In this document: piece by piece, positions 1-51,566 of the stretch | Layout of the letters: every line of letters starts with the position of its first letter | Position numbering within the stretch: position 1 is the first letter of the stretch | NCBI GenBank assembly: GCA_043820105.1 | Contig: JBDREC010000046.1 | Coordinates: 8,687-72,686, forward strand | Source: Pseudomonadota bacterium | GTDB lineage: Bacteria; Bdellovibrionota_F; JAHFAK01; JBDREC01 | Length of the DNA: 64,000 nucleotides | Direction of reading: 5' to 3' | Position numbers and translations under genes: made by a program | The notes under the pieces: generated by a model | Databases searched by the model: none | Told to the model about the DNA's origin: nothing | The model's input: only the letters and a program-made list of their open reading frames with translations

Positions 1-438
1 AAGTTTAGAAATGAAAGCATAGGTTTCATTTTTCAATTTCATTATTTGTTTAGAGAGTTAAGTGCTCTTGAGAATGTTATGTTACCCGCTTTAATGTTTG
101 GCCTGGGGAAAAAAGAAGCTTCCTTAAAAGCAAAGCAAATTTTAGAAGAAGTTTCACTACATGGTAGAATGGAACATAAGCCAGGCGAACTTTCTGGTGG
201 AGAACAGCAAAGGGTTGCAATTGCTCGCTCTATTATAATGTCTCCTAAGATTATTTATGCTGATGAACCAACAGGGAATCTTGATCCTGATACTGGAGAA
301 AGTGTGTTTAATTTACTGCTTGGCCTAAATAAATCTCATAATGTTACCTTAGTTACTGTTACTCATAATCAAAAGCTCGCTTCATTAACCGATAGAACTT
401 TAAGAATAAGGAAAGGTAAAATCGAAAACTTTAAATGA
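1..438 (+). CDS. ABC transporter ATP-binding protein (LolD/FtsE-like), 5'-partial
   Basis: The frame is open from base 1. The translation shows the ABC signature LSGGEQQRVAIARSI, the Walker B/D-loop (IYADEPTGNLD) and the H-loop (VTHN). The stop overlaps the bamA start (ATGA). Confidence 0.8.
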   Translation, partial: KFRNESIGFIFQFHYLFRELSALENVMLPALMFGLGKKEASLKAKQILEEVSLHGRMEHKPGELSGGEQQRVAIARSIIMSPKIIYADEPTGNLDPDTGESVFNLLLGLNKSHNVTLVTVTHNQKLASLTDRTLRIRKGKIENFK

Positions 439-2882
439 AAACTTTAAAATGCTATTTATATATATTTTTATTCTCGTGTCTTAGCTTTTCCTTGTTTGCA
501 GCAATCGAAGATGCAAATAAAGTTGTAAATTCAATAATGGTTTCTGGAAATCATACTATTGAAGAAGCTGCAATTTTATCTTTAATTGAAACAAGACCTG
601 GCGAAAAGTATTCAGATGAAAAAATTAACAATGATCTGAAAACTTTATATGGCGAAGGATATTTCGATGATATTCTTATTAAGAAAGAAGAGGTCGACGA
701 TTTTAGTTTAGATCTTTTAATTGTTGTTAGAGAAAAACCAATTGTAGCTGAAGTTGATTTTGGTTTTTTTGGTGAGAAAATTGCAGAAAAGAAAAAAACA
801 AAAGTTGATATAAATAAAGATCCTACGAAAAGTATTGATTTCAAGGCTGAAGGTGATGTTTTTAAATCAGAAGACATTGATGTTGTTGATGAAGATGAAA
901 TAAAAGATGTAATTTCAACATCAGTTTCTTCATATCTGGATATTTCAAAATTAAAATCAGATATAGAAGCTATCGAAAAGCTTTATTATGATAAGGGTTA
1001 CTACCTTGTAAGGGTTGATTATGTGCTGGTGGATAAAGGTCAAAATAAGGTAAAGGTTTTGTTTTCAATAAAGGAAGGCTATCAAGTAATTTGCAAGCGA
1101 ATTAATTTTATTGGCAATAAGCATTTCTCTGAAGAAGAACTGAAAAAGACCATGCATACAGCGGAAGGTGGATTTTTAGAGTTCGTTTCAGAACTTGGAA
1201 TATCAGCAGCAGGTGCCTATAAAGAAGAACTTTTCAACATTGATAAAGAGTTAATAACTTATTTTTATTTAAATCACGGTTTCATAAATATTAAAATAGA
1301 ACAGCCTGTTGTATTTTTATCTCCTGATAAAAGCAGGATTTATATTGATGTCATTCTGAATGAAGGCGATCAGTTCTATGCTAATAATATTAGTATTTCA
1401 GGAGATATAATCTATGATGAAGAAAAAATAAGAGAAAAGATTCAGATAAAACAAGGAGATGTCCTGAGTTATGAAAAGATTCAAAGAGATATTCAGCGTG
1501 TTAGTGCGTTGTACATGGATGATGGATATGCTTATGTAAATGTTATTCCAAGAACAGATGTTAATAATGAAGACAAAACAGTTAATATTAGTTTTGATAT
1601 ACAGAAGGGAAATAGAGTTTATATTGAAAAAATTAATTTTCTTGGCAATGATACAACTCGAGATAAAATATTGAGAAGGCAAATGGATATTTTTGAAGGT
1701 GAACTTTATTCAGCAACAAAGATATCTAAAAGTAAGTTTAATATTCAAAGGCTAAGTTTTTTTAAAGATGTGAAAATTACTCAAAGTGAAGGATCAAGAG
1801 ACGATAAACTAAATCTTGATATTGAAGTTGTTGAACAAAGTACGGGTACCTTCTCTGTTGGAGCTGGTTTCAACTCTTTTGAAAGTTTTCAGCTTATTGC
1901 ACAAATTCAGAAAAATAATCTTTTAGGCTATGGCTGGGTAATTAATCTAATGGCAAGATTAGGTGGCAGGAGTCAGGTTTATCATTTGAATTTTGTAGAT
2001 CCATATTTTTTAGATACTGATATGTCACTATCTGTTAGTGTGTATAATCAACAAATTAGATATATTGATTTTACACCACAACAAACAGGTGGTTCAATAA
2101 AACTTGGATATCCAATTTGGGATAGAGTTTATAGAGCTAGTTTTGGCTATAGTCTTGAAGATGTTGAAATTCTAAATGTTAATGCTGTTCAGGAATCCTT
2201 GGTATCCGAAGGGCTAACAAGTTCGCTTGTTTTTGGTTTATCAAGGGACACTAGAAATAGACTTAATATGTTTGAAACAACCTCCGGAATGTTAAGCACC
2301 TTTAATTCAGAGTTAGCTGGAACAGGGTTTTTAGGTGGTGATACTGATTTTCTGAAACTATCATTTGAACACAAACAATTTATACCTGCCTTTGATGATG
2401 ATTTTCCAATTCTTGGTGGATCAAATTTTCAATTGCGAGGTAAACTCGGATGGATTACTTCAACGACTGATCAAGAGGTACCAATTTTCGAAAGATATTT
2501 CCCAGGAGGTATGTATTCAATAAGAGGTTTTGGAATTAGAACTCTTGGTCCAACTATTGATGTTGCTTCTAGCTCAGATCCAGAAAGTCTTATTAACCAG
2601 GAATTCCATATTGGTGGAAATAAAGAAGCTGTTTTTAACTTTGAATATGTTTTTCCAATATTAAAAGAACATGGTATTAAAGGCGTTTTATTTTTTGACA
2701 TGGGAAATGCCTTTGATAATGGCGAATTTTATAATTTTAACGACTTTAGATATTCGGCAGGTTTTGGCTTTCGCTGGTTTTCACCAATTGCTCCACTTCG
2801 TTTTGAATGGGGTTTTCCTTTAGATAGAGAAGAGGATGAAAATGTTTTTATCTTTGATTTTTCTATTGGGACACCGTTTTAG
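435..2882 (+). CDS. bamA: Outer membrane protein assembly factor BamA (Omp85)
   Basis: 815 aa with a signal peptide and repeated POTRA-like segments. The C-terminus is the surface-antigen beta-barrel (RGFGIRTLGP ... FDFSIGTPF, terminal aromatic residue). Confidence 0.9.
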   Translation: MKTLKCYLYIFLFSCLSFSLFAAIEDANKVVNSIMVSGNHTIEEAAILSLIETRPGEKYSDEKINNDLKTLYGEGYFDDILIKKEEVDDFSLDLLIVVREKPIVAEVDFGFFGEKIAEKKKTKVDINKDPTKSIDFKAEGDVFKSEDIDVVDEDEIKDVISTSVSSYLDISKLKSDIEAIEKLYYDKGYYLVRVDYVLVDKGQNKVKVLFSIKEGYQVICKRINFIGNKHFSEEELKKTMHTAEGGFLEFVSELGISAAGAYKEELFNIDKELITYFYLNHGFINIKIEQPVVFLSPDKSRIYIDVILNEGDQFYANNISISGDIIYDEEKIREKIQIKQGDVLSYEKIQRDIQRVSALYMDDGYAYVNVIPRTDVNNEDKTVNISFDIQKGNRVYIEKINFLGNDTTRDKILRRQMDIFEGELYSATKISKSKFNIQRLSFFKDVKITQSEGSRDDKLNLDIEVVEQSTGTFSVGAGFNSFESFQLIAQIQKNNLLGYGWVINLMARLGGRSQVYHLNFVDPYFLDTDMSLSVSVYNQQIRYIDFTPQQTGGSIKLGYPIWDRVYRASFGYSLEDVEILNVNAVQESLVSEGLTSSLVFGLSRDTRNRLNMFETTSGMLSTFNSELAGTGFLGGDTDFLKLSFEHKQFIPAFDDDFPILGGSNFQLRGKLGWITSTTDQEVPIFERYFPGGMYSIRGFGIRTLGPTIDVASSSDPESLINQEFHIGGNKEAVFNFEYVFPILKEHGIKGVLFFDMGNAFDNGEFYNFNDFRYSAGFGFRWFSPIAPLRFEWGFPLDREEDENVFIFDFSIGTPF

Positions 2883-2885
2883 GAA

Positions 2886-2969
2886 GTGGTAAGTGGTAAG
2901 TGGTAAGTGGTAAGTGGTAAGTGGTAAGTGGTAAGTGGTAAGTGGTAAGTGGTAAGTGGTAAGTGGTAA
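2886..2969. repeat. (GTGGTAA)12 perfect heptanucleotide tandem repeat
   Basis: Read directly from the sequence. It starts 4 nt after the bamA stop codon. Confidence 0.95.
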
Positions 2970-2972
2970 GAT

Positions 2973-4088
2973 TTAAGAGTCGCCAAAGCATGTGCCTAGG
3001 TCTCTGGCTGTATTGACTGTGTCGCAATCAAGTGGAACTGATTTCATTCTGTTTACAGCGTCTTTTAGTGGGACGTAGCGGACAAATGGGGGGTCAAGGG
3101 CTACCATTATTCCTGATTGGCCTTCAGACAAGGCCCTGACTGCTGCTGCTCCAAAGCGTAGTGAAATTAGTCTGTCAAAAGTTGTTGGAGAACCTCCCCT
3201 TAAAAGGTGTCCTAAGATTACGGCTCTTGATTCAATGCCTGTTAATGCTTCTAGCTCTTTAGCTACAGTTTCACCAACACCACCTAGTCTTTCCAGCCGT
3301 CCCAATTCTTTGGAAATAACTGAAACATTGCCATCTGCAGGTTTTGCGCCTTCTGCTACAACTACAATTGAATAATCTCTGCCACTTTCTTTGATATTTT
3401 TTATTTTTTCTGCGACGAGATTAAGGTCATAAGGAATTTCAGGCATTAAAATAACATCAGCGCATGCTGACACACCAGCATTTAGAGCTATCCAGCCTGC
3501 ATATCTTCCCATTACTTCTACTACCATGATTCTATGATGAGACTGGGCAGTGGCGTGTAATCTGTCAATGCAAGATGTAGCGAAACTGACAGCTGAGTCA
3601 AATCCAAAGGTTATTACGGTTTTATCAAGATCATTATCAATTGTTTTTGGAACACCAACTACTTGTAGTCCTAAATCAGCAAAAGCATTTGCGATTTTTA
3701 ATGAACCATCGCCTCCTATCGAAATGAGTGCATCAATTCCATGATCTTTAAATTTTGAAACCAAATCAGGAGTAATATCTTTTTCAAACCAAGAACCATC
3801 TTCTGCTTGTGTTGGATAGCATAAAGGATTTCCCTTATTGGTAGTTCCAAGGATTGTGCCACCTTGATTTGTGATTCCACGTACAGAGTGAGCTGTTAAT
3901 TTAATGATAGGCTCTATATCTTTATAATTTTGAGGAAGAAAAAGACCATTGTATCCATCACGAATACCAACAACTTCCCAGCCTTTGTTGATGGCGCTTA
4001 AAACAGCAGCTCGGATAACAGCATTTAAGCCTGGTGCGTCTCCACCGCCTGTTGAAATTGCAATTTTTTTAATTTTATTTTGATACAT
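2973..4088 (-). CDS. pfk: 6-phosphofructokinase (ATP- or PPi-dependent)
   Basis: 371 aa with PFK-family motifs: the N-terminal GGDAPGLNAVIR, GGDGS, MGR and the PKTIDNDL substrate site. Confidence 0.85.
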   Translation of the reverse strand: MYQNKIKKIAISTGGGDAPGLNAVIRAAVLSAINKGWEVVGIRDGYNGLFLPQNYKDIEPIIKLTAHSVRGITNQGGTILGTTNKGNPLCYPTQAEDGSWFEKDITPDLVSKFKDHGIDALISIGGDGSLKIANAFADLGLQVVGVPKTIDNDLDKTVITFGFDSAVSFATSCIDRLHATAQSHHRIMVVEVMGRYAGWIALNAGVSACADVILMPEIPYDLNLVAEKIKNIKESGRDYSIVVVAEGAKPADGNVSVISKELGRLERLGGVGETVAKELEALTGIESRAVILGHLLRGGSPTTFDRLISLRFGAAAVRALSEGQSGIMVALDPPFVRYVPLKDAVNRMKSVPLDCDTVNTARDLGTCFGDS

Positions 4089-4390
4089 GTATACCTGCTT
4101 TAAATAAATAATGTAATCTAAATTCTATTCTTTATTTCAATATCATCAAGGAAATAGTTAAAATAAGTATTTTCTTTTTATCCAATAGTTTTAGATTTCG
4201 TCTATTTGTCTACTTACTGAAAGGGATCAGCTAGTGGCGATAATAATAGAGTGCAGTTGTCGGTGATATACCCGTTTTAAAAAATTAATTATTAATTATT
4301 ATTTATTGATTATTAATTATTTTTCGAGCGAATTTTTAAAATTTTCAATAATTAATTCTTAACAATTAATTAATCTATACGCGTTTTACA

Positions 4391-4429
4391 TATATAAAAA
4401 GGGGGTACACTCGTTAGAGCGTACCCCCC
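4391..4429 (-). terminator. Rho-independent terminator (minus-strand orientation)
   Basis: On the minus strand the RNA reads GGGGGGUACGCUCUAACGAGUGUACCCCC followed by UUUUUAUAUAU. The stem is 8-11 bp and GC-rich, with a U-tract after it. Confidence 0.5.
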
Positions 4430-4573
4430 TTGTTTCAAAAGTCTAGGACTCTGATTACCTTTGATTTCAGTATTTCTACTTCATATCATTAGCATTTTTC
4501 AAATCCTAGCCCCCTCCGAAATTGTATAAAATAGGCTTTTTTACATGCCCCTTCCAAGCAATTGCATACGTAT
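4392..4573 (-). ncRNA. Candidate sigma-54-dependent small RNA (~180 nt)
   Basis: It is bounded by a perfect sigma-54 promoter and the intrinsic terminator above. No ORF longer than 8 codons lies between them. Confidence 0.4.
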
Positions 4574-4583
4574 TGTTTCCTAG

Positions 4584-4600
4584 AGCAAGATTGGTGCCAG
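4584..4600 (-). promoter_or_regulatory. Sigma-54 (-24/-12) promoter
   Basis: The minus strand reads CTGGCACCAATCTTGCT, i.e. TGGCAC-N5-TTGCT, a full consensus match with correct GG/GC spacing. Confidence 0.5.
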
Positions 4601-4654
4601 CTTGATCACTGTATGTTTTAAGCTATAGGTTATAAGCATTAAGGCTATAATATC

Positions 4655-4693
4655 AAACAGATAGATCCTTGTTCACTTGTTCCCCTGTTTTCT
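4655..4693. repeat. Octamer direct repeats (AAGNGAAC)x4, minus-strand orientation, 55-95 nt upstream of the sigma-54 -24 box
   Basis: The plus strand reads cttgttcacttgttcccctgttttcttgttccc. This is a possible enhancer (UAS) array. Confidence 0.5.
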
Positions 4694-4986
4694 TGTTCCC
4701 TTGTTTTTAAGTGTCAAAATGGGATTTGATGGACAAAAAGTGACACCAGTCACGAAATCCAGCAATATTGCGGGTTTGCAAAAAATGGCTCATCTAAGTT
4801 CTTTCTGAGCAAGGATAATACGGTTTATGCCTAGATTACGCCAAAATTGAGCATTTTACGCTTTGTGATTTTTGTCACAAAACAAGATAAATGTATATAT
4901 TACAATGCCTTATCTTTGGTGGCTCCATGGCACAGCTCTTGCTATAACTATAAAGTAAGCATCGAGGAGTAAAGGGAGAAAAAGCT

Positions 4987-6069: not shown

Positions 6070-7263
6070 ATGAAATACTACCTATCAAGACACAAAATTC
6101 TGGTCATTTTCGTAAGTTTTCTATTGATTTTACCATTATCAGCACTTGGAAAAGATAAAAAGAAACAAAAACAAGGATCTTCAAGTAGTTCAAGGGTTTC
6201 ATCTTCAAGTAGCAATGGATCAAGGAGCACTGGAAGTCAAAGGGGATCAAGTGTGCAATCAAGGCCTAGCTCAAGCCAAACTCAGGCATCTCAAGCTAGA
6301 CCAAGTTCAAGTAGACCCCAAGCTTCTCAATCTAGAAGTCAAGCACAGCAAAGAACTGGAACTACCACTCAAACAAGACCAAAACAATCAACTACAGTAG
6401 CAACAACTACTACTCAATCTGGAACAAGGTCACAGACTACGGTTACAAGGGAACAAGGGAACAGGGGAACAACAACTAGCACTCATCAGAGAGGATCAAC
6501 CCAGGTTAGCAGTCATCAAAGACCAACAACTCAAGCTAGCAGTCATCAAGGAAGTGGTTCCCATGGCAATCATGGTGGAACTCATAATAATCAAGGAAAC
6601 CATGGTTCTTCAGGAAATCATGGAAATAATAATCATAACAATAATGGAAGCAGTCATAGAAGAGATACAGTTCATGTAGTTCACCATTATCACCATCATG
6701 CTGTTCATCAAAGACCAAATCCTTATAGACCTTATGTAAGACCCTATGTGAAGTGGAACAGATATGTTACAAAATCTAATAGAAGATTTGTAAGATATGT
6801 TCATTACGCAAGACCTTTTTATTATAGACCATTGTTCATATTTTATATTGCACCTTACAGACCGCATTATACAGTAACTTTTTATTATGAACTGCCAGCA
6901 AGACCACAAAGAGATATGTGTGATATACTTGTCCATGAAGACATGTTAGACGAAGGAAATGATTATTTCTACTATACTATGGTTAATCTTTTCTACAATA
7001 GAGATTTTGATCCTATGTTCACAGATATTTATGATCCAGATAGAGATGCTTATATGCATGAATTAGTTATGGATTATGATTATGCAAGACTAGACAATGG
7101 TTATTGCTCTGCCTTAGTGTCAATTTCACAAAAAGTTGCAGATGATCGTTATACCTATCCATCAGATCCTGAGCTTTATGAAGCTGTTGAGTATCAAGAA
7201 GGTATCGCTCCAAGTTGTGAAGATGCATTGCTTGAAGCTATTAAACATGTTAATCCTTGTTAA
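6070..7263 (+). CDS. Secreted low-complexity protein: Ser/Thr/Gln-rich, then a His/Asn/Gly-rich tract (HHYHHH), then Tyr/Arg/Pro-rich, then an acidic Cys-containing C-terminal domain
   Basis: There is a strong RBS (aaggggga) and a signal peptide (MKYYLSRHKILVIFVSFLLILPLSALG). The 397-aa ORF is long and uninterrupted despite its low complexity. Confidence 0.6.
   Translation: MKYYLSRHKILVIFVSFLLILPLSALGKDKKKQKQGSSSSSRVSSSSSNGSRSTGSQRGSSVQSRPSSSQTQASQARPSSSRPQASQSRSQAQQRTGTTTQTRPKQSTTVATTTTQSGTRSQTTVTREQGNRGTTTSTHQRGSTQVSSHQRPTTQASSHQGSGSHGNHGGTHNNQGNHGSSGNHGNNNHNNNGSSHRRDTVHVVHHYHHHAVHQRPNPYRPYVRPYVKWNRYVTKSNRRFVRYVHYARPFYYRPLFIFYIAPYRPHYTVTFYYELPARPQRDMCDILVHEDMLDEGNDYFYYTMVNLFYNRDFDPMFTDIYDPDRDAYMHELVMDYDYARLDNGYCSALVSISQKVADDRYTYPSDPELYEAVEYQEGIAPSCEDALLEAIKHVNPC
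6437..6465 (+). repeat. Octamer repeat (AAGGGAAC)x3 inside the CDS
   Basis: This is the same octamer family as at 4655 and 7262. Here it encodes TREQGNRG. Confidence 0.6.
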
Positions 7264-7297: not shown

Positions 7298-7332
7298 AAT
7301 TCAAAATTTAAAATTCAAAATTCAAAATTAAA
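7298..7332. repeat. (AATTCAA)5 heptanucleotide tandem repeat
   Basis: Read directly from the sequence. Related copies occur at 11409 and 13245. Confidence 0.85.
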
Positions 7333-7403
7333 ATTGACATAAACTCCACTTTAACTAGCATACCATTAGGTTATTATAATAAATAATACTGCATGGAGAT
7401 CTA

Positions 7404-11200: not shown

Positions 11201-11404
11201 ATGAAATATTATAAAAAACTAATAAAATCAAAAAAAGGACAAACAGCTGTTGAATATGCACTAGCTACTATCCTTGGTTCCATTATTGCAATCTCAATGT
11301 ATTTCTTAGTTGATCTTAAACTTGAGGGATCAACTAATAATCGTAATATTTTAGAGATGTATTTTGGAAATATGGAGCATGTTGTTTGCAGGCCTTATCC
11401 TTAA
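11201..11404 (+). CDS. flp: Flp/Fap-family type IVb pilin
   Basis: 67 aa with the class III prepilin motif G-QTAVEYALA followed by a hydrophobic helix. Confidence 0.6.
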   Translation: MKYYKKLIKSKKGQTAVEYALATILGSIIAISMYFLVDLKLEGSTNNRNILEMYFGNMEHVVCRPYP

Positions 11405-11408
11405 TAAT

Positions 11409-11450
11409 AATTCAAAATGCAAAATTCAAAATTCAAAATTTAGAATTCAA
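11409..11450. repeat. (AATTCAA)6 heptanucleotide tandem repeat (two variant units)
   Basis: It starts 5 nt after the flp stop. Confidence 0.85.
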
Positions 11451-11526
11451 TTATTTGCTTGTTAATAATTTGTTTTATTAATATTATTTTTTTTTGAAAT
11501 TTAAAATTATTAACTGGAGCCTTTTT

Positions 11527-13245
11527 ATGTCACAACTTTCAGTTCTTGATTGGTCTATTATTATTGGATATATTGTTATCAGTTTAGCGGCTGGTCTTTT
11601 GATTGCAAGGCGTTTTAAGGGAGCTAAAAGTATAATCGGATACTTTGTAGCAAATAGATCTTTGCCTTGGTGGCTGGCTGGCATTTCAATGATAGCATCC
11701 TCTTTTGCAATTGATACTCCTTTAGGAATTACTGGTATGGTAGCTAGCCATGGTATTCAAGGAGTTTGGTTTGCATGGGCTTTCATAATAGGTGGTACAG
11801 GTGCATTGTCAGCTTTCTTTTTTGCTTTTATGCTTAGAAGATCTGAAGTTATTACGTCAGCTGAGCTTATTGAATTGAGATATTCTGGAAAAGGCGCAGC
11901 TTTCTTAAGACTATTTAAAGCTATTTTTATTGGTATAGTTGCAAATGCTTTAACTTTAGGATGGGTAATGAAGGCTGTTACAACTTTTGGAGAAGTTGGA
12001 TTTGGATACAACCCTATGTTGATTCTTGCGGTAATTTTAGCTATAACTCTTGTGTATACAACAGTTTCTGGTATGTGGGGAATTGTTGCAACTGACGTTT
12101 TGCAATATGCAATTTCACTTTTTGGTGTAATTGCTCTGGCAGTTTACGCTATTAAATATGTTGGTGGAATTGATGGCCTTGTAGAAGGTATAAATGCCAG
12201 ATATGGTCTTGAAGAAGGTACAAAAAGATTAAACTTTATTCCTAGAATTGATTCATCTTTTTTTCATATGTTTATTGTATTTGTGACTCTAAAGTGGTGG
12301 GCCGATCCTCCAAATGCAATCTTGCAAAGAATTGTTTCTTCAAAAAATGAGAAGCATGCTTCTTTGGCAACCTTAATATTTTCAATTGGGCAATTTGCTA
12401 TTAATTATTGGCCAATGATACTGGTTGCTCTTGTTTCTTTGATTGTATATCCAAATTTACCTAAATCTGAAGCAGAAAAAGGATATGTTTTATTAATTTT
12501 CAAGTTATTACCTTCTGGAATGCTGGGAATTGTGCTTGCAGCGATGATTGCAGCTTTAATGTCAACAATTGATACTCACATTAATATGGGCGCTTCTTAT
12601 ATTGTTAATGATATATATAAAAGATTTATTAACCCAGAAGGCGATGAAAAGCATTATGTTTTGGTTTCAAGGATAGCCACAGTTTTAATGTTATTAATCG
12701 CTGTTGTTATAGCCATGAACTTAGATTCAGTTAAATCTGCATGGTATTGGCTATCAATGCTTTTAGCTGGTTATGGCTTTGTTACTGTTATCAGATGGTT
12801 TTGGTGGAGGCTTAATGCCTGGTCAGAAATTGTATGCATGCTAACATCTTTTCTTGGAACAATCTTGGCGAAATATGTTTTTAATTTTAGTACTTTTGGA
12901 TGGAGATTCATATTTGTCGTTGTTTTCTCCTTGAGCCTAACAGTGATTGCTACTTTTTTAACAAAGCCATCTTCAAAAGAAGTGCTATTAAATTTTTGTA
13001 AATTAGTTAGACCTTTTCCAACTTTCTGGGGTCCCATTGTTAAAGAAAACCCAGATCTTGGATGGAATCCTTTTTTTGGAAAAACACTTTCCATGTGGTT
13101 AATGGGAGTTGTAATGATTTTTTCAATTTGCTTTGGAACAGGGCATCTAGTATTTACAAATTACTTATATGCAATAATTTTATATGGAATAGCTTCATTC
13201 TTTGGAATTATTATTTACAAAATGTGGCCAGAAACACTTGAATAA
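11527..13245 (+). CDS. Sodium:solute symporter (SSS) family transporter
   Basis: About 13 TM helices typical of SSS. I chose the ATG at 11527 because a GGAG sits 9 nt upstream. The ORF extends in frame to 11494. Confidence 0.85.
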   Translation: MSQLSVLDWSIIIGYIVISLAAGLLIARRFKGAKSIIGYFVANRSLPWWLAGISMIASSFAIDTPLGITGMVASHGIQGVWFAWAFIIGGTGALSAFFFAFMLRRSEVITSAELIELRYSGKGAAFLRLFKAIFIGIVANALTLGWVMKAVTTFGEVGFGYNPMLILAVILAITLVYTTVSGMWGIVATDVLQYAISLFGVIALAVYAIKYVGGIDGLVEGINARYGLEEGTKRLNFIPRIDSSFFHMFIVFVTLKWWADPPNAILQRIVSSKNEKHASLATLIFSIGQFAINYWPMILVALVSLIVYPNLPKSEAEKGYVLLIFKLLPSGMLGIVLAAMIAALMSTIDTHINMGASYIVNDIYKRFINPEGDEKHYVLVSRIATVLMLLIAVVIAMNLDSVKSAWYWLSMLLAGYGFVTVIRWFWWRLNAWSEIVCMLTSFLGTILAKYVFNFSTFGWRFIFVVVFSLSLTVIATFLTKPSSKEVLLNFCKLVRPFPTFWGPIVKENPDLGWNPFFGKTLSMWLMGVVMIFSICFGTGHLVFTNYLYAIILYGIASFFGIIIYKMWPETLE

Positions 13246-13280
13246 ATTCAAAATTCAAAATTCAAGATTCAAAATTCAAA
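13245..13280. repeat. (AATTCAA)5 heptanucleotide tandem repeat
   Basis: It overlaps and directly follows the transporter stop codon. Confidence 0.85.
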
Positions 13281-13358
13281 ATATAAATGAACGTTTGCAT
13301 TTTAAATTTTTAAATATTAATTATATAAACGATTTTTTAAAGTTTTAAAGAGGTAAAA

Positions 13359-30869: not shown

Positions 30870-31268
30870 TTATAGGTTTTTATATTTTTGTTCTAGTTCA
30901 AACTCTGAAGAAGTTACATAGTCTTCAATTTTTCTCATTCTTTCATTCATGGTTCTATATTTATGTCTTATATCTGCAAATGTTTCCTTTGGTGTTAGGG
31001 TAACAGATCTCCAAAATATAGCCTCTTCTTCTGATCGATATTGATTAGCTGGTTTTTTCTTTAGTATAAATATTAAAGCAATATATCCTATCCAAAAAAA
31101 TGGTGATAAGAAGATTGCTCCTATTATAATAATTAATCTAACAAGTGTTCTGGAAATGTTTAAATAATCTGCTATTCCAGCACAAATTCCAAATAAAATG
31201 CCTTTATCAGGATTCCTGTACAGGCGATGTGGATTTATTGATTCGTAACTCATATTTTGTTCCTCCAT
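30870..31268 (-). CDS. pspC: Phage shock protein C
   Basis: A PspC domain (GILFGICAGIADYLNI) and a C-terminal EDYVTSSEF comparable to E. coli PspC. Confidence 0.75.
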   Translation of the reverse strand: MEEQNMSYESINPHRLYRNPDKGILFGICAGIADYLNISRTLVRLIIIIGAIFLSPFFWIGYIALIFILKKKPANQYRSEEEAIFWRSVTLTPKETFADIRHKYRTMNERMRKIEDYVTSSEFELEQKYKNL

Positions 31269-31483
31269 TTTGGGTTGTCTTTGTCTAGAATTGTTTCAAT
31301 TGAATTTATCCTTGTTTCCATTTTTTGTGCTGCTTGCCAAAGGTCAGATAATATTTGCTCATCTTCTCGTGATAGTGTTTTTGCTGATTTTATTTTGGCT
31401 ATATAGTGGAGGATTAGCCAAAATGGAACTATGATTATAAGAAAAGCAAAAAATAATGAAACTGTTACAATTGTTGGGGCCAT
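31250..31483 (-). CDS. pspB: Phage shock protein B
   Basis: 77 aa: a single TM followed by LHY...SxxDxxxLxxLxxxAxxMxxRIxxxExILD, which aligns with E. coli PspB. Confidence 0.7.
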   Translation of the reverse strand: MAPTIVTVSLFFAFLIIIVPFWLILHYIAKIKSAKTLSREDEQILSDLWQAAQKMETRINSIETILDKDNPKWRNKI

Positions 31484-31492
31484 TTTATTTCC

Positions 31493-31560
31493 TTTGAAAG
31501 TGGTAAGCTGTAGGTTGTAAGCTGTAAGAAAGGAGTACAGCGTACGGCGTACAGCGTACA
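31493..31560. repeat. Degenerate heptamer repeat block: (GTGGTAA-like)x4 then (GTACAGC)x4
   Basis: Read directly from the sequence. It lies in the pspA-pspB intergenic spacer. Confidence 0.7.
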
Positions 31561-31568
31561 GCGTTTGC

Positions 31569-32231
31569 TTATTTTCCTAGTTTTTCTTTTAGTTTTTGTA
31601 GTTCTGTTTCTATTTCGTTTTCGTGTTCTAGTTTTTCGAATTCATCTTCTAAGGATTTTTTGCCCCCCTTTATTTTCATGGCTTCTATTTCGCCTTCCAT
31701 TCTATCAATATCGCGCTCGAATTTATCGAATTTATTAAGTGCTTTTGAGGTTTCTGATTTGTGAATTTGCCTGTTCATTTCAAGTCTTGAAGCTGCTGAC
31801 TGCTTTCTGGCTATAATAGTTTTTTGTTTTGTTTTTGCTTCACTAAGTTTATCTTCAAGTTGTTTTATATCTTTTTTAAAATGATCTAAGATTTCATTAA
31901 GATTGTTAAACTCAATATTATAGTCATTTTCAATTCTTTGCTTTTTAGCTTTTTCTTCAATTGCAGCCTTTGCTAAATCATCTCTTCCTTTTTCAACGGC
32001 AAGCTCTGCTTTGCTTTGCCACATATTTTGATTTTCTTTTAAAAGTTCAATATTTCTTTCAATAGTTTTTTTGTCAGCAATGTATTTTGCTGCTTGAGAC
32101 TTGACTTCAACAAGAGTATCTTCCATCTCTTGAATCATTAGCCTGACCATTTTTTCTGGATCCTCTGCTTTATCAAGCATATGGATTATGTTTGAATTAA
32201 TAATATCTGTAAGTCTTGAAAAAATTCCCAT
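31569..32231 (-). CDS. pspA: Phage shock protein A (PspA/IM30)
   Basis: The N-terminus MGIFSRLTDIINSNI...AEDPEKMVRLMIQEMEDTLVEV is nearly identical to the E. coli PspA N-terminus. The rest is coiled-coil. Confidence 0.9.
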   Translation of the reverse strand: MGIFSRLTDIINSNIIHMLDKAEDPEKMVRLMIQEMEDTLVEVKSQAAKYIADKKTIERNIELLKENQNMWQSKAELAVEKGRDDLAKAAIEEKAKKQRIENDYNIEFNNLNEILDHFKKDIKQLEDKLSEAKTKQKTIIARKQSAASRLEMNRQIHKSETSKALNKFDKFERDIDRMEGEIEAMKIKGGKKSLEDEFEKLEHENEIETELQKLKEKLGK

Positions 32232-33826: not shown

Positions 33827-33896
33827 GTGGTAAGTCGTAAGTGGTAAGTGGTAAGTGGTAAGTGTTAAGTGGTAAGTGTTAAGTGGTAAGTGGTAA
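33827..33896. repeat. (GTGGTAA)10 heptamer repeat with GTCGTAA/GTGTTAA variants
   Basis: It lies 39 nt after the pspF stop. Confidence 0.9.
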
Positions 33897-34851: not shown

Positions 34852-35862
34852 TTGAAAAGTAAGTATATAAAATTGTTTTTAATTATTTTTTTTACCTTAT
34901 CTATTTCTATGCTTGTTCAGCCAAAAACTATTATTAAATTAGCAACAGTAGCACCAGATGGTTCTGCTTGGATGAAGATCACAAAAGAATACACAGATGC
35001 TGTTGAAAAAGCCACAAATAATCGAATAGGTTTTAAACTTTATCCCGGTGGTGTTGCAGGTGATGAAAGAGCAGTTCTGCGAAAAATGAGATTTAATCAA
35101 ATTAATGCAGCTGGCTTTACTGGGGTTGGCTTAGGAGATATTTTACCAGAGGTTAGGATTCTTGACTCACCAATGCTATTTAGATCTTATGCTGAAGTTG
35201 ATTTTGTCTTGTCAAAATTTACAAAAGATTTTGAGAGTGAATTTTTAAAAAAAGGTTTTGTTTTGTTAGGGTGGACAGAGGTTGGATTTATTTACTTTTT
35301 TTCTCAATTAAATATTCTTACAAAAGAGCTTTTATCAGAAACCAAAATGTGGACCTGGGAAGGGGACCCTGTTTCTTCTGCTATGCTTAATTCTTTAAAT
35401 GTTAAACCTATTCCACTGGCAGTTACAGATGTTTTAACATCTTTGCAAACAAACTTAATTGATTCTGTCTATACTGGCCCAGCTGCCTGTGTAGCCTTAC
35501 AATGGTTTGCAAGGATTAAATATATTTTAGATGTAAAGCTTGCTGATGCGGTTGGTGCAATTTTGATTTCAGAAAAAACTTATAATATGCTTTCAAAACC
35601 AGATAGCAAAATACTTAAAGATCTGGGTTTTGAATATATGAAAAAGCTTACCAAGATATCAAGAAAAGATAATGACGAATCATTAAGCCTAATGCAGGGA
35701 AATGGAATCACTTTATTAAAACCCACAGAAAAAGATAAAGAATTCTTTGTAAAGGCCGGACAACAGGCAAGACAAGCCCTTGTTGGAAAAATGTATTCAA
35801 AAGAATTATTAAATCGATTTGAAAAGACTTTGGAAGAGTTTAGGAAAAGTGGTAAGCGGTAA
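34852..35862 (+). CDS. dctP: TRAP transporter substrate-binding protein (DctP family)
   Basis: DctP-like periplasmic binding fold. I chose the TTG start at 34852 because AAGGAG lies 5 nt upstream. The ORF extends to 34780. Confidence 0.8.
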   Translation: MKSKYIKLFLIIFFTLSISMLVQPKTIIKLATVAPDGSAWMKITKEYTDAVEKATNNRIGFKLYPGGVAGDERAVLRKMRFNQINAAGFTGVGLGDILPEVRILDSPMLFRSYAEVDFVLSKFTKDFESEFLKKGFVLLGWTEVGFIYFFSQLNILTKELLSETKMWTWEGDPVSSAMLNSLNVKPIPLAVTDVLTSLQTNLIDSVYTGPAACVALQWFARIKYILDVKLADAVGAILISEKTYNMLSKPDSKILKDLGFEYMKKLTKISRKDNDESLSLMQGNGITLLKPTEKDKEFFVKAGQQARQALVGKMYSKELLNRFEKTLEEFRKSGKR

Positions 35863-35925
35863 GTGGTAAGGGGTAAGTGGTAAGTGGTAAGTGGTAAGTG
35901 GTAAGTCGTAAGTCGTAAGTCGTAA
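35849..35925. repeat. (GTGGTAA)11 heptamer repeat with GCGGTAA/GGGGTAA/GTCGTAA variants, overlapping the dctP stop codon
   Basis: The dctP TAA stop is the TAA of the second repeat unit. Confidence 0.9.
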
Positions 35926-40686: not shown

Positions 40687-40728
40687 GTGGTAAGTGGTAA
40701 GTGGTAAGTGGTAAGTGATAAGTGGTAA
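40687..40728. repeat. (GTGGTAA)6 heptamer repeat (one GTGATAA variant)
   Basis: It starts 4 nt after the uvrA stop. Confidence 0.9.
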
Positions 40729-40777
40729 GAAAGAGATCTGGGGAACTGGCGTTCTGGTACCACTTGTTCCCTATAGG

Positions 40778-42386: not shown

Positions 42387-42418
42387 GGAGGGGGGATGGA
42401 TATCCCCTCTCCATTTTT
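42387..42418 (+). terminator. Rho-independent terminator
   Basis: GGAGGGGGGAUGGAUAUCCCCUCUCC (an 11-bp stem with G-U wobbles) followed by AUUUUU. Confidence 0.55.
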
Positions 42419-42532: not shown

Positions 42533-44545
42533 ATGAAAAAGGTAATTATTATTATCATTCTATCAATTTTTACCTTAAGTTGTCTTGGTTCAGATGATAC
42601 ATCTTCAGATACGACCATAACTGGTACAGTTCAAGTAATAGGTTTTGATGCTTCCACAAAAGATTTAGTGGTTAATCATCCTGTTAGTGTAAGTATTTCC
42701 GTACAATCAAAAATAGGTCTTGCCAATTTAGAGGTTTCTGTTGGACTAGTGGAAACTCCTGAAGAAAATGCAACAGAAGATGAAATGGCTGATTTGCAAT
42801 CTTGTCTTTTAGGAGTTGTTCGCTTTGAGGATCTCAAGGCAAATGTTGCTAAAACTATGCATGAAAGCTTTAGAGTGAGCTCTGATTGTGAGTTAAGTGA
42901 TACATCTAAAACCCTGAACTTTTTTACCATTATTGATATTTTTGATAAAAGTGATTTTTCAGCGGATCCTTTAAGTGATGATGGAATTGCTGCTTTTTAT
43001 ACAAAAAACCAGAGTCGTCCTAATAATAAAGTTTGCTTAACATCTGATGGTGATGTGGGATGTATTGTTAATGTTACTGTAGATGAAAATCCTGGTATAG
43101 ATTTATCTATGTCTAAATTTTCTTTGCAATCAAGTACAGTGATTTTATATGATGGCACTGATAGTTCTAATGTGCCAGCTGGTGAAGGGGAATATAATCC
43201 AGCACACGCAAAAGCTAATATAGCAATTCGCCTTGATGGAGTGAGTAGTGATGCTGAAAATGACTTAACTGCAGCTACTGAAATTCGTTATGATATATGT
43301 CCCAAAAATGGAACAAATCCAGATTGTGTTTTAGGTGAATGGATGCCTGTTACCATTTTTTCAGTAAAGGACGCTGCAAGTGGACATGATAGAATTGCTG
43401 AAGTCTCTTCTCTCAGCGGAGGGCACGATAGTTATTATCAGCATGATTTATATTTTGAAGGTGATACTTTGACTGCAATTTCAGCAGGTGGAGCTTGGGC
43501 AGATCACGGTCAATTTACGCTTCGAGCCTGCATTAACATTCCAAGAGCAGCTGAAGCAGAATTTAGTTTAAGCGCTTTTACCCCTTTAACAGAGGCTTCA
43601 GAAATGGGTTATGGTGAAAGCCTGGATAATAATTGTAAATATTTTAAGGTAAATATTACTGAACCAAGGGATCAGGGTAATTCGCCTTCTTTAAGCTTTG
43701 ATCATTCATATTCTAATACTTGGGGAGATGATGATACAATTGCTGTTTACGCAGATATCGGGACTACTAACACCCTTGACAGTGAAGGAGCCCATTCCCA
43801 TACCTATGCTGAAGTAAAACTAGAAGGCTGGATTTCTTCAACCATTTTTCATGCAGACTCAGATGTAGATGCTGATACTGATATTTCTGATAATGAAATT
43901 GACTTAACGGTCGTTGCTATGGATTCAACTGTTTACAGCTATTCAAGAGAAGGTGAGTCAGAACTAACTTTTGATGAGGATTGGTCTGTTTCTAAAAAGA
44001 TTTGTGCAACTTTTTCCTATGGAATTTGGATTGTGAGTGTTGATGTAGATGTTTGTGCTTCTGGATCTTTGGGATTTGATGCGACGCTTACGATGTCATC
44101 TCACGCTGGGGATGATACAAGTAATTTTGATACAACTACAACTGCATATGGTGAAGCAATCCCAACCATTACTCCAAGTCTTGATTTTGATGCTTCAGCC
44201 ACAGCATCACTAGATGCAGTTATTTATGAAGCAGGAGCCAAGGCTTCCATTTCACTGCTTGATCTTTCCTCGCCGTTAACGGCCTCATTAAAATGGGGAT
44301 CTTATAGTGATTCAGAAATGGGTGTTATTGTTGATGTGGACTTCTCAACAGATATTACAACTCTAGATGGTTATCTTGAATTATACGTTGATAAAAAGGA
44401 AGTGGATTGCGTTCATGATTATGAACCTTGGACTTGCAGTTCATATTGGCACCGTGAAGACACTGATACAATTGCATCATGGACTGCTGTAACATATGAT
44501 CATTCTCTCTTAAATGAAACAACTTCAGATACCTTAGAATTTTAA
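42533..44545 (+). CDS. Large acidic lipoprotein (hypothetical)
   Basis: An RBS (AAAGGAGGA) and a lipobox (FTLSCLG). 670 aa, rich in D/S/T with paired Cys. Confidence 0.6.
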   Translation: MKKVIIIIILSIFTLSCLGSDDTSSDTTITGTVQVIGFDASTKDLVVNHPVSVSISVQSKIGLANLEVSVGLVETPEENATEDEMADLQSCLLGVVRFEDLKANVAKTMHESFRVSSDCELSDTSKTLNFFTIIDIFDKSDFSADPLSDDGIAAFYTKNQSRPNNKVCLTSDGDVGCIVNVTVDENPGIDLSMSKFSLQSSTVILYDGTDSSNVPAGEGEYNPAHAKANIAIRLDGVSSDAENDLTAATEIRYDICPKNGTNPDCVLGEWMPVTIFSVKDAASGHDRIAEVSSLSGGHDSYYQHDLYFEGDTLTAISAGGAWADHGQFTLRACINIPRAAEAEFSLSAFTPLTEASEMGYGESLDNNCKYFKVNITEPRDQGNSPSLSFDHSYSNTWGDDDTIAVYADIGTTNTLDSEGAHSHTYAEVKLEGWISSTIFHADSDVDADTDISDNEIDLTVVAMDSTVYSYSREGESELTFDEDWSVSKKICATFSYGIWIVSVDVDVCASGSLGFDATLTMSSHAGDDTSNFDTTTTAYGEAIPTITPSLDFDASATASLDAVIYEAGAKASISLLDLSSPLTASLKWGSYSDSEMGVIVDVDFSTDITTLDGYLELYVDKKEVDCVHDYEPWTCSSYWHREDTDTIASWTAVTYDHSLLNETTSDTLEF

Positions 44546-48519: not shown

Positions 48520-49806
48520 ATGAATGACAAAGCTTTTAGTGCCTTTGAGATGGCTCAAAGACAATTTGATCAGGTTGCAGATCTTTTAGATTTAGATGCG
48601 GCCTCAAGAGATCTATTGCGTAATCCAATGAGAGAATATCATTTTAATATTCCAGTGAAAATGGATGATGGTTCAGTCTCTGTATTCAGAGGATTTAGGG
48701 TTCAACACAATGATGCAAGGGGTCCTGGTAAAGGTGGAATAAGGTTTCATCCCCAAGAGACGATTGATACTGTTAGGGCGCTTTCAATGTGGATGACCTG
48801 GAAATGTGCTTTAGTTGATATTCCTTTGGGTGGTAGTAAGGGAGGCGTGATTTGTGATCCGCATAATTTGAGCTTATCAGAGCAGGAAAGACTTTGCAGG
48901 GGATGGGTTAGACAAATTGCTAGAAATATTGGACCATGTATTGACGTGCCTGCTCCAGATGTTATGACTAATGCACAACATATGCTATGGATGCTTGATG
49001 AGTTTGAAGTTATCCATGGAGGAAAGTTTCCAGGAGTTATCACTGGAAAGCCAGTTGGCCTCGGAGGATCACTTGGCAGAACAGAAGCAACTGGATATGG
49101 TGTAATATTTACAGTAAGAGAAGCTTTAAAAGAACTGGGAATTATGCCTGAAAACACAACAGCCAGTTTTCAGGGTTTTGGAAATGTTTCACAATATGCA
49201 GCAAAACTTTATCAGCAATTGGGTGGAAAAATAATTTCTGTCTCTTGTTGGAATCAGAAAGAGCAGATAGCTTATACTTATAAAAAAATTAAGGGTATTA
49301 ATTTAGAAGATCTTTTGACAATAACAGATCGCTTTGGAGGCATTGATAAAGAAAAAGCATTTGAAAAAGGTTATGAAATCTTGCCAGCTCAAGCCTGGAT
49401 AAGTCAAGATGTTGATATTCTAATCCCAGCTGCCCTTGAGAATCAAATTACAGCTAGCAGTGTTAAAAAAATTAGTGAAAAAGTAAAAATAATTGCAGAA
49501 GGAGCTAATGGTCCTACAACACCTGAAGCAGATGTATTTATTAAAGAAAAAGGTATCTTTTTAATTCCTGATTTTTTAGCAAATGCAGGTGGGGTTACTT
49601 GCAGTTATTTTGAACAGGTGCAAAGTAATATGAATTATTATTGGGAAAAAGATGAAGTTTTAAGCAAGCTGGATCTTAAAATGACCTCTGCATTCAAAGA
49701 AGTGAGCAGGTTATCAAGAAAAAGAAATATATACCAAAGGGATGCAGCCTATATAATAGCTATTAATAATGTTGTTAAAGCTTGTAAGGAAAGAGGTTGG
49801 GTATAA
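48520..49806 (+). CDS. gdhA: Glutamate dehydrogenase (Glu/Leu/Phe/Val dehydrogenase family)
   Basis: The family signature KGGIRFHP...LVDIPLGGSKGGV and a Rossmann domain (GFGNVS). Confidence 0.85.
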   Translation: MNDKAFSAFEMAQRQFDQVADLLDLDAASRDLLRNPMREYHFNIPVKMDDGSVSVFRGFRVQHNDARGPGKGGIRFHPQETIDTVRALSMWMTWKCALVDIPLGGSKGGVICDPHNLSLSEQERLCRGWVRQIARNIGPCIDVPAPDVMTNAQHMLWMLDEFEVIHGGKFPGVITGKPVGLGGSLGRTEATGYGVIFTVREALKELGIMPENTTASFQGFGNVSQYAAKLYQQLGGKIISVSCWNQKEQIAYTYKKIKGINLEDLLTITDRFGGIDKEKAFEKGYEILPAQAWISQDVDILIPAALENQITASSVKKISEKVKIIAEGANGPTTPEADVFIKEKGIFLIPDFLANAGGVTCSYFEQVQSNMNYYWEKDEVLSKLDLKMTSAFKEVSRLSRKRNIYQRDAAYIIAINNVVKACKERGWV

Positions 49807-51566
49807 TGATTGAGAACACCAAGTTTCCACTTCCAAAAACAATCAAAAGATTTCAAAGAGAATTCTTTGAGTCAAAAGATGACTTTACGTATATTGGAAA
49901 TGGATCTTTTGGTGGTAAGGCATTGGGGCTGCTTTTTATTCATGATAAATTAGTGAAATCCTGTGAGAATAATACTGGCTTTGAGAATATTAGGGTAAGT
50001 ATTCCTAAATCTACAATTATTACGACAGAGCTGTTTGATATCTTCATGAAAAGGAATAATCTTTATGATTTATTTTCTAATAAAAATATTTCAGATGAAG
50101 ATATTGTTCTTGAGTTTCAGCAAGCCGAGTTGCCTACGGAACTTTTGGGTGATCTGCGGGCCCTAATTTCAAAAGTTCACAGTCCATTGGCCATTAGATC
50201 ATCAAGTTTGATCGAAGATTCAATAGACGCGCCCTTTGCAGGAATTTATGCAACAAAAATGATTCCTAACAATCAATCTGAAACAACAATGCGCTTTAGA
50301 AAATTATCAGATGCAATTAAGTTTGTGTACGCATCAACATTTTTTAAATCTGCCAAGGACTATATTAGTTCTATAGATTTAAACATTAACAATGAAAAAA
50401 TGGCTGTAATTATTCAAGAGTGTGTTGGAAATTTATATGATGATTATTTTTATCCGAACATATCAGGCGTGGTTCGTTCTTACAATTTTTATGCTTTTGG
50501 TAAGTCAAAACCACAAGATGGAATGGGGAGTTTGGCTTTAGGATTGGGAAAAACTATTGTGGATGGATCCAATAGTTGGAACTATTCACTTACTAATCCT
50601 AAAGCTCCTCCCCCTTATAACTCTATTTCAGACCTTTTAAAGCTTAGTCAGAATAAGTTTTGGGCTGTTGATATGTCAAAACAGACAAAATATGATCCTG
50701 TGAAAGAAACAGAGTTTATGAAATTACTTGAACTTAAAGAAGCCGAGTTTCATGGGAACTTACAGCCCATAGCTTCAACATATGACCCAGCTTCTGATAG
50801 AATAGCCTTTGGAACTCATGTAAATGGTCCAAGGCTTTTAAATTTTACTCAAATATTAGATTTTGAAGAAGTGAAATTAAATAAACTTTTATTACATATT
50901 GTGGATTTATGTAAAGATATGTTCAAAGAAGATGTTGAAATTGAATTTGCACTAAATTTTGATCATAAAAATTATAAAAATGTAAGGTTTGCTTTTTTAC
51001 AAGTCAGACCAATAGCAGTGTCAAATGAAAACACAACAGTTGAGAGTAGTGAGTTATTGCAATCTGATAATTTATTGTCTTCAGATGTTGTGTTGGGAAA
51101 CGGAAGTGATAACAATATTAAAGATATAGTTTTTGTTAAACCTGAAGTTTTTGATAAAAGTAAAACAAGACAAATCGCTAATGAACTTGAACTAATTAAT
51201 AAAGACTGTCTCAGAGAAAATATTAATTATTTATTAATTGGATTTGGTAGGTGGGGAAGTCAAGATGAATGGCTAGGAATACCAGTTGATTGGGGTCAGA
51301 TATCTAAGGCAAAGGTTATTATTGAAGCAACTTTGCCAGCAATAGATGTTGAAATAAGTCAAGGCTCCCATTTTTTTCATAATCTGACTGGCTTTAAAAT
51401 TCCTTATTTTTCTGTAAAGCACAATAGTAAATTCTCAATAGATTGGGATTGGCTTAATTCGCAGAAAATGATAAAAGAAACAAGTTTTTTAAAACATGTT
51501 AGATTAAGCAGGCCCTTAAATGTTAAAGTCGATGGCAAAAAGGGAATTGGTGTAGTGAAAAAATGA
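49806..51566 (+). CDS. PEP/pyruvate-binding (PPDK_N, ATP-grasp-like) domain protein lacking the phosphohistidine and PEP-utilising domains
   Basis: GGKALGL, the VRSSSLIEDS...FAG motif and FLQVRP, all typical of PF01326. The start overlaps the gdh stop (TAATG). The C-terminal ~180 aa is paralogous to the next gene. Confidence 0.7.
   Translation: MIENTKFPLPKTIKRFQREFFESKDDFTYIGNGSFGGKALGLLFIHDKLVKSCENNTGFENIRVSIPKSTIITTELFDIFMKRNNLYDLFSNKNISDEDIVLEFQQAELPTELLGDLRALISKVHSPLAIRSSSLIEDSIDAPFAGIYATKMIPNNQSETTMRFRKLSDAIKFVYASTFFKSAKDYISSIDLNINNEKMAVIIQECVGNLYDDYFYPNISGVVRSYNFYAFGKSKPQDGMGSLALGLGKTIVDGSNSWNYSLTNPKAPPPYNSISDLLKLSQNKFWAVDMSKQTKYDPVKETEFMKLLELKEAEFHGNLQPIASTYDPASDRIAFGTHVNGPRLLNFTQILDFEEVKLNKLLLHIVDLCKDMFKEDVEIEFALNFDHKNYKNVRFAFLQVRPIAVSNENTTVESSELLQSDNLLSSDVVLGNGSDNNIKDIVFVKPEVFDKSKTRQIANELELINKDCLRENINYLLIGFGRWGSQDEWLGIPVDWGQISKAKVIIEATLPAIDVEISQGSHFFHNLTGFKIPYFSVKHNSKFSIDWDWLNSQKMIKETSFLKHVRLSRPLNVKVDGKKGIGVVKK

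Follow-up and report, generated by a model that had tools for sequence, protein, structure and literature searches.

Introduction

Bacterial genomes carry tandem arrays of seven-nucleotide units that have gone unexplained since STRRs (short tandemly repeated repetitive sequences) of heterocystous cyanobacteria were described (Mazel et al. 1990, as cited in PMC4692102 and PMC2670836), and the function of heptamer repeats 'remains to be elucidated' (PMC4692102). Here we analyse arrays of the heptamer GTGGTAA in a stretch of 64,000 nucleotides of contig JBDREC010000046.1 (assembly GCA_043820105.1), called the window below, which contributes a new unit from a lineage that is isolated and uncultured. 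A sequence-only reading of the window had noticed near-perfect arrays close to stop codons at five places and had taken them for a genome-specific family. We find that the kind of element is known while the unit is new, and that across phyla the placement of the arrays follows a strand rule, in which the C-poor strand is the mRNA strand.

The described systems differ in how far they match. STRRs share with the arrays the tandem 7-nt units, several families per genome, intergenic positions often between co-directional genes and, at some loci, hairpin pairs (hupS–hupL, PMC2670836). They differ in unit sequence; the window also comes from an isolated lineage, an uncultured metagenome-assembled genome (MAG) labelled Pseudomonadota with 33% GC, and its arrays lack a full inverted partner. 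A survey of long simple sequence repeats (LSSRs) is cited for an excess of heptanucleotide repeats in intergenic DNA and for slippage in a 7-nt register (Mrazek 2007, via PMC4679880 and PMC4692102). The period-7 intergenic excess in free-living bacteria and the proposed slippage origin are common to both, whereas neither the GTGGTAA unit nor a polar rule is among the results for which those two articles cite the survey. [quoted passage not shown] This strand and position rule is that of the GTGGTAA arrays, and copy number varies between relatives in both, but the Xanthomonas and Nostoc units contain GGG or GGGG tracts, and their preference for exactly four units is absent in the window, where the arrays have 6–12. 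TAACTGA repeats are found in marine Beggiatoaceae, cyanobacteria and Bacteroidetes (MacGregor 2015, PMC4679880). There, too, one heptamer dominates a genome, occurs in scattered phyla, is mixed with other heptamers and has stop triplets in its unit; the BOGUAY sets, however, are mostly of 2–6 copies, forward and just upstream of starts, whereas the window arrays are longer and follow stops. Finally, repetitive extragenic palindromic (REP) sequences, bacterial interspersed mosaic elements (BIMEs) and intrinsic terminators occupy the same post-stop site, including between binding-protein and permease genes (as at dctP–dctQ), but the window arrays have no palindrome, stem-loop or U-tract. Neither GTGGTAAGTGGTAA nor its complement was found in any searchable paper, where tandem GTGGTAA is unreported.

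GTGGTAA arrays in the window

All five arrays found by a sensitive scan of the window lie on the plus strand and none on the minus strand. The longest, (GTGGTAA)12 at 2886–2969, consists of perfect units and fills the spacer between bamA (435–2882, plus strand) and the convergent phosphofructokinase gene pfk (2973–4088, minus strand), both assigned by Pfam. This spacer of 90 nt, with the stops at 2882 and 2973, is made up of the 84-nt array and 3 nt on each side. The array at 33827–33896 has 10 units, three of them variant (GTCGTAA and GTGTTAA twice), and lies 38 nt after the stop of the pspF-like gene and 69 nt before the start of the TAtT gene. At the end of dctP, 11 units (35849–35925; variants GCGGTAA, GGGGTAA and three times GTCGTAA) include the TAA of unit 2 (35860–35862), at which the dctP open reading frame (ORF) terminates, and dctQ starts 56 nt downstream. 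Six units at 40687–40728, one of them GTGATAA, follow the uvrA stop by 3 nt, with the stop of a convergent cofD-like gene 49 nt away; a partial inverted unit, GGTACCACTTG (40756–40766, plus strand), can pair with the last 1.5 units of this array. The fifth array is degenerate (GTGGTAA GCTGTAG GTTGTAA GCTGTAA, 31500–31528) and is found between pspA and pspB (ORF 31250–31483), which are both on the minus strand. The mRNA there holds the C-rich complement, and the pspB ATG is 16 nt downstream of the array. A degenerate copy had indeed been seen in this spacer, at 31493–31560; its presence stands, but its coordinates are corrected, and it is followed by a different heptamer, (GTACAGC)4 at 31535–31564 on the plus strand, 4 nt from the pspA stop (31569–31571, minus strand).

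The arrays exist as first described and form a non-random, stop-adjacent family. Allowing one mismatch, (GTGGTAA)2 has 33 matches in the window against 0.02 expected from shuffles, and all five loci in these 64 kb lie in a spacer or overlap only the last codons of a gene. Tandem Repeats Finder gave a period of 7, 6.3–12.4 copies and 90–100% matches for the window arrays; among perfect repeats of at least three copies in the window, period 7 accounts for six arrays and periods 6 and 8–12 for none. Tandem 7-nt units, several dispersed loci and an excess specific to period 7 are among the defining features of heptanucleotide simple sequence repeats (SSRs) and STRRs. The gene names were upheld by Pfam (BamA/Omp85, a PspF-like sigma54 activator, DctP, UvrA and PspA), which also identified the TAtT-DctP-DctQ-DctM tripartite ATP-independent periplasmic (TRAP) transporter genes, the convergent CofD-like gene and PspC. 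The earlier observation that the array at dctP provides the stop codon itself proved correct, the TAA lying inside unit 2. The further suggestion that the arrays could be variable number tandem repeats (VNTRs) changing C-termini does not hold, as dctP stops in unit 2 and the copy number downstream leaves the protein unaltered. By sequence logic, a period of 7 does put a TAA in every plus-strand frame and leave the complement open, as had been stated.

The array boundaries share short motifs. The right boundary GTAA|GA is common to all five arrays, and arrays 1 and 3 (at bamA and dctP) have the left flank TTTAGGAA in common (2877–2885 and 35840–35848, offset 2 nt) as well as the right flank GATT. 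By a rough estimate the chance of such shared flanks is ~0.02, and they are suggestive only. Beyond GTAA|GA, the flanks have only weak similarity, to ~15 nt, with no terminal inverted repeat and no target-site duplication. A miniature inverted-repeat transposable element or another small mobile element with a conserved body was ruled out on this basis, there being short boundary motifs only. The shared flanks, together with five arrays of the same unit in 64 kb, suggest that arrays were copied from one locus to another and did not each arise independently.

The genes of the window are tightly packed. The other convergent pairs have spacers of 5, 9, 2 and 14 nt, and all four are without an array. 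These pairs (14651/14657, 29386/29396, 54748/54751 and 57980/57995) leave no room for any terminator; with spacers this short, transcription must stop inside the opposing gene or be factor-dependent. As ordinary convergent spacers measure just 2–14 nt, the genome is very compact and the arrays in it are pure insertions, and since four pairs manage with such spacers, terminator-like spacers are not generally required here. The arrays stand 3′ of the housekeeping genes bamA, uvrA, dctP and pspF and not, as a phase-variation SSR would, in a promoter or in the 5′ portion of an ORF, where a change in length switches expression. After the window's own UvrA, its nearest homologues are 73% and then 68% identical, with synteny lost. 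GTGGTAA arrays are absent from the contigs of those two relatives, one of which has two short arrays of other heptamers.

The strand rule across genomes

At least 107 stretches, in species-representative genomes of at least 12 phyla, contain exact (GTGGTAA)4. The counts that follow, on the polar rule and on carrier loci, are among these at least 107 bacterial matches listed (L001–L107), from more than 100 species; every bacterial array was oriented as GTGGTAA, and ORFs were called at 150 aa or more. In this orientation, the median distance from the stop of a same-strand gene to the array is 9 nt, and it is within 15 nt for 24 of 41 arrays, whereas the median distance from the array to the stop of an opposite-strand gene is 88 nt (4 of 32 within 15 nt). 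Between convergent genes, the array is closer to the gene for which GTGGTAA is the sense strand in 12 cases and to the other gene in 1 (Wilcoxon p = 0.002), and in about a dozen cases the stop codon comes from the array itself.

The same polarity is seen where arrays come in pairs. An inverted (TTACCAC)n partner was found within 90 nt of 18 arrays, and in 18 of 18 the partner is 3′, which puts the G arm first on both strands (18:0). The hairpin architecture reads stop, G array, loop, C array, 7–9 nt and next start. We rejected a separate cluster of arrays at start codons, 7–9 nt from an opposite-strand ATG, as at least 6 of its 13 members are the 3′ C arm of such hairpin-type elements. Heptamer hairpins of other units have the arm with more G than C first in 24 of 28 cases, with 4 opposite (p = 0.0002), and independent non-GTGGTAA heptamer arrays nearest a gene 3′ end (n = 36, sense strand 11% C and 27% G) have more G than C on the sense strand 27 times and more C than G 8 times (p = 0.002). 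We did not find the G-arm-first rule stated in the papers on heptamer repeats cited here. Single C-sense arrays abutting stops do exist (L026, L078 and L088).

In two Acidobacteriota species whose flanking proteins are 83% and 92% identical, the hairpin loop has diverged while both arms are perfect. The spacers in question, which are orthologous and come from MAGs, hold a (GTGGTAA)4 / (TTACCAC)4-5 hairpin (L062 4040–4113 and L067 2784–2865). They separate the next gene from a 157-aa ORF that is presumably GreA-like, judged by eye from its sequence.

Stop-codon insulation, one of the functions first considered for the arrays, does not emerge as the organising principle. Among other heptamer units with stop triplets on one strand only, the split is 13 vs 8, which is not significant, compared with 27 vs 8 for G over C; stop content is thus non-predictive, and we rejected it as the determinant of orientation. 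In addition, the AATTCAA family, co-resident in the window, has no stop on its sense strand.

Distribution and copy-number change

The carriers of (GTGGTAA)4 belong to Campylobacterota, Cyanobacteriota, Bacillota, alpha-, beta- and gamma-Proteobacteria, Acidobacteriota, Bacteroidota, Ignavibacteria, Planctomycetota, Omnitrophota, Bdellovibrionota, Kiritimatiellae, Marinimicrobia and Chloroflexota, the local GC content of the loci ranges from 28 to 70%, and array length reaches 12–23 units. The family is therefore not genome-specific, as the sequence-only reading had it, but an instance of the long-known heptanucleotide SSR/STRR class. In ~800 kb around the bacterial matches, period 7 accounted for 245 arrays, period 6 for 9 and period 8 for 13, and the carrier loci contain 94 different heptamer units. 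In viral contigs, (GTGGTAA)4 was present in 5 stretches and its permutations GGTGATA, GTGATGA and GGGTTAA in 1, 13 and 3. We rejected a special, conserved status for GTGGTAA, given permutations of the same composition that are about as common in viral contigs and the 94 other units. Since heptamer arrays of many kinds abound in the carrier genomes, convergence is the simplest explanation of the phyletic spread and the most likely origin of the wide occurrence of GTGGTAA arrays.

Comparing copy number across strains, as the first reading had proposed, revealed VNTR behaviour of the same unit in Halomonas. Halomonas titanicae BH1 has 11 units after the pgpA stop, there are 8 in a TARA metagenome contig whose flanks are near-identical and whose PgpA is 99% identical, and a species with an 83% identical PgpA has a spacer of 173 nt with no repeat. 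The pgpA locus is thus a case of VNTR behaviour and of recent gain in place. Many arrays, some of 15–23 units, lie exactly at contig ends of draft assemblies (L007, L013, L020, L023, L029, L044 and L075). Such repeats break short-read assemblies, and their copy numbers in MAGs are best taken as lower bounds.

Structure and terminator tests

As RNA, the window arrays are predicted to be unpaired on both strands in minimum free energy (MFE) folds, with z-scores of 0.2–1.2. The sole hairpin potential at any of them is between the end of the 40687–40728 array and the inverted unit at 40756–40766 (minus-strand fold z = −3.2). An intrinsic terminator was rejected, with no GC-rich stem-loop followed by a U-tract at any window array, while good terminator-like sites were found elsewhere in the window, at 4398–4431 (minus strand) and 42387–42412 (plus strand). 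The view that the arrays form no hairpins and are not classical terminators is therefore borne out: they are predicted to be unpaired, and no terminator-like site coincides with any array. A G-quadruplex was likewise rejected, as the unit has only GG doublets and the G4-aware MFE structure of (GUGGUAA)12, at −1.9 kcal/mol, is without a quadruplex; under the same folding, the control (GGGAAUC)4 folds into one. The complement, (UUACCAC)12, is 43% C, contains no G and has no base pairs in its predicted MFE fold. Rfam gave no match at the gathering threshold in the whole window, and comparison of the unit with DnaA boxes, Chi, Shine-Dalgarno and CsrA sites gave no convincing match. A Pfam profile search of the window found no rho gene and no cold-shock gene.

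Discussion

We propose, with a probability of roughly 0.5, that the arrays belong to the STRR/LSSR class of heptanucleotide SSRs, are generated by slippage and pass through a filter that acts on RNA and depends on their orientation. Loops of ~7 nt largely evade mismatch repair. Birth and length change would occur by slipped-strand mispairing in a 7-nt register (after Mrazek 2007, cited in PMC4679880), and placement would be set by an orientation-dependent filter on the transcript. A repeat would be tolerated right after a stop when the mRNA strand is the C-poor strand; the GTGGTAA mRNA strand has no C, no predicted structure and stops in all three frames. Its complement, rich in C, free of G and open in all frames, would be kept off stops or paired behind a preceding G arm. 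For the sense transcripts of bamA, pspF, dctP and uvrA, the array would be an inert spacer. For the opposite-strand transcripts of pfk, the cofD-like gene and pspA, it would be an unstructured RNA stretch of up to 84 nt (43% C, 0% G), which these transcripts would reach 3, 49 and ~40 nt after their stops. By composition, a Rho utilization (rut) site is ~70–80 nt of RNA that is C-rich, G-poor and unstructured. The complement-strand RNA of the window arrays resembles one in composition only, and natural rut sites differ in not being tandem repeats. With such a composition, the complement may terminate convergent or antisense transcription, and a Rho-related cause of the filter, with Rho loading on opposite-strand transcripts, is plausible as a hypothesis.

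What the comparison adds is that a unit without G4 potential obeys the strand and position rule of the G4-forming heptamers, and does so in more than 100 species rather than two genera. That the rule holds for a unit with no predicted quadruplex argues against a general explanation by G4 formation and for a constraint on the RNA that is linked to the direction of transcription. The first observation is confirmed, the element being of a known kind and its unit new; it is the cross-phylum polarity rule that is worth pursuing.

Several findings weigh against slippage with a filter as the full account. Independent slippage from random seeds does not account for five arrays of the same unit in 64 kb; some within-genome copying mechanism or unit-specific selection must exist, and the TTTAGGAA...GATT flanks shared by arrays 1 and 3 and the common GTAA|GA ends bear on the same point. 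The filter is statistical, at roughly 85%, and not absolute, as the exceptions L026, L078 and L088 demonstrate, and AATTCAA has more C than G yet abuts stops. In the Acidobacteriota hairpins, perfect arms around a diverged loop hint that the repeat is under positive constraint and not just tolerated. Slippage plus a filter does not account for the period of 7. As for a Rho-related cause in particular, the window's other convergent pairs, which have no arrays, count against it, as do the exceptions to the polar rule, and cyanobacteria, the classic STRR carriers, are not known to have Rho. The positional rule is nevertheless reported in Nostoc (Rehm 2015), and Rho therefore cannot be the whole reason.

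A more active role can be imagined, in which the array is selected as a dedicated insulator without a hairpin. The (UUACCAC)n track would load Rho and end convergent or antisense transcripts, with partial termination after pspA, while the sense strand would be Rho-proof. We regard this as possible but doubtful. It fits the C-rich, G-free complement, predicted to be unpaired over up to 84 nt, the short distances at which the pfk, cofD and pspA transcripts meet it and the lack of an intrinsic terminator at these gene ends, and if exposed C-rich RNA is avoided, both the C-poor-sense rule and the G-arm-first rule would be expected. However, four other convergent pairs cope with spacers of 2–14 nt and no array, single C-sense arrays occur within co-directional pairs, and the positional rule extends to a cyanobacterium, Nostoc (PMC4692102), where the lack of Rho just mentioned applies. 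In a broader and rather unlikely form, the arrays would be no neutral by-product but a widespread polarity element without a hairpin, one rule in at least 12 phyla by which the C-poor strand comes first in the transcript, right at the end of translation. Factors would not load on the sense transcript, and the transcript from the 3′ side would expose a C-rich, G-free track to Rho or to another C-specific single-strand RNA binder. If true, this would be an insulator against antisense and convergent transcription made from simple repeats, and it would explain the G-arm-first hairpins.

The unit itself could also be what matters. Were the 7-nt unit a register for a protein that binds single-stranded nucleic acid (e.g. 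one with a cold-shock domain) or DNA, genome-specific unit preferences would be expected; one unit does make up 5 of the 9 period-7 arrays of the window, the arrays are predicted to be unstructured and hence accessible, hairpin arms are kept between species where the loop diverged, and unidentified partners have been proposed in the literature, a cold-shock-domain protein among them (MacGregor 2015, PMC4679880). Yet Pfam revealed no candidate protein and none encoded beside the arrays, 94 units are in use across genomes, several unrelated ones side by side in the same spacers, and copy number is highly variable, which together make protein binding quite improbable. A non-B structure, as has been proposed for GGGNATC repeats, would be a quadruplex or an R-loop; in one version, R-loops where translation ends would drive orientation-specific expansion of the G-rich non-template strand. 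The positional rule common to this unit and the G4-forming heptamers of Xanthomonas and Nostoc would fit, as would a G-rich, C-free sense strand and arrays that start exactly where ribosome cover ends, but with GG doublets only and no quadruplex predicted where the GGGAAUC control folds, and with AATTCAA having no G at all, we consider it very improbable. A three-frame stop insulator that catches read-through or frameshifted ribosomes is just as improbable, if anything slightly more so. TAA does recur in three frames every 21 nt, arrays begin 0–14 nt past stops and ~12 provide the stop itself; still, stop content is non-predictive for other units, AATTCAA arrays occupy the same positions with no sense-strand stops, and three units suffice, yet arrays reach 12–23. 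Stop and start codons are moreover C-free, which confounds this explanation with C-depletion.

An assembly artefact or a mobile element is scarcely credible. The window does come from a MAG, and many arrays in other assemblies are at contig ends, but the window's arrays sit between unique, intact genes, the reading frame of dctP depends on its array, and such arrays are present in complete isolate genomes (Arcticibacter CP169244 and H. titanicae). At 42–84 nt, they are also below the typical length of a short read. A mobile element would be expected to have a conserved body, and there is none beyond ~15 nt of flank. For annotation, it matters that such arrays can provide stop codons, as in dctP, and fragment assemblies.

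Other repeats and genes in the window

The AATTCAA family, missed by the earlier reading, has three arrays, all on the plus strand and 34, 4 and −2 nt from plus-strand stops. These are (AATTCAA)~5.5 at 7298–7335, after the stop of ORF 6070–7263; (AATTCAA)6 at 11409–11450, after the stop of the small ORF 11201–11404; and (AAATTCA)5.6 at 13244–13282, which overlaps the TAA stop of a sodium:solute symporter gene (11494–13245). The first abuts a −35-like TTGACA at 7334. This hexamer is part of a good −35/−10 match, TTGACA-16-TAGCAT (7334–7361), upstream of a Gln/Glu-tRNA synthetase gene, and the adjoining array stands where an UP element would be expected. ORF 6070–7263 has no Pfam match; it contains a repeat with a 30-nt period (2.5 copies, 6476–6549), which suggests a protein with an internal 10-residue repeat. 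ORF 11201–11404, too short for the list of ORFs, which starts at 80 aa, encodes 67 aa with a Flp/Fap-pilin-like N-terminus (…GQTAVEYALA…).

Beyond pfk, the spacer 4089–4874 is unusually long for this compact genome (~790 nt). It contains (ATTAATT)5 at 4284–4321, the terminator-like hairpin at 4398–4431 (minus strand), which is strong and of 15 bp, a decayed run of xxxTAAG heptamers at ~4613–4649 and a period-8 repeat, CCTTGTTC, at 4667–4705. The spacer might encode a non-coding RNA, with no Rfam match there.

Two ORFs, 57995–61642 (minus strand, 1215 aa) and 42533–44545 (plus strand, 670 aa), match no Pfam family at E ≤ 1e-5. At 49797–54748, two neighbouring ORFs each have a PPDK_N (PEP-utilising, ATP-binding) domain, and the second, of 1061 aa, has an unusual architecture in which a nucleotidyltransferase (Pol-beta-like) is fused at the C-terminus.

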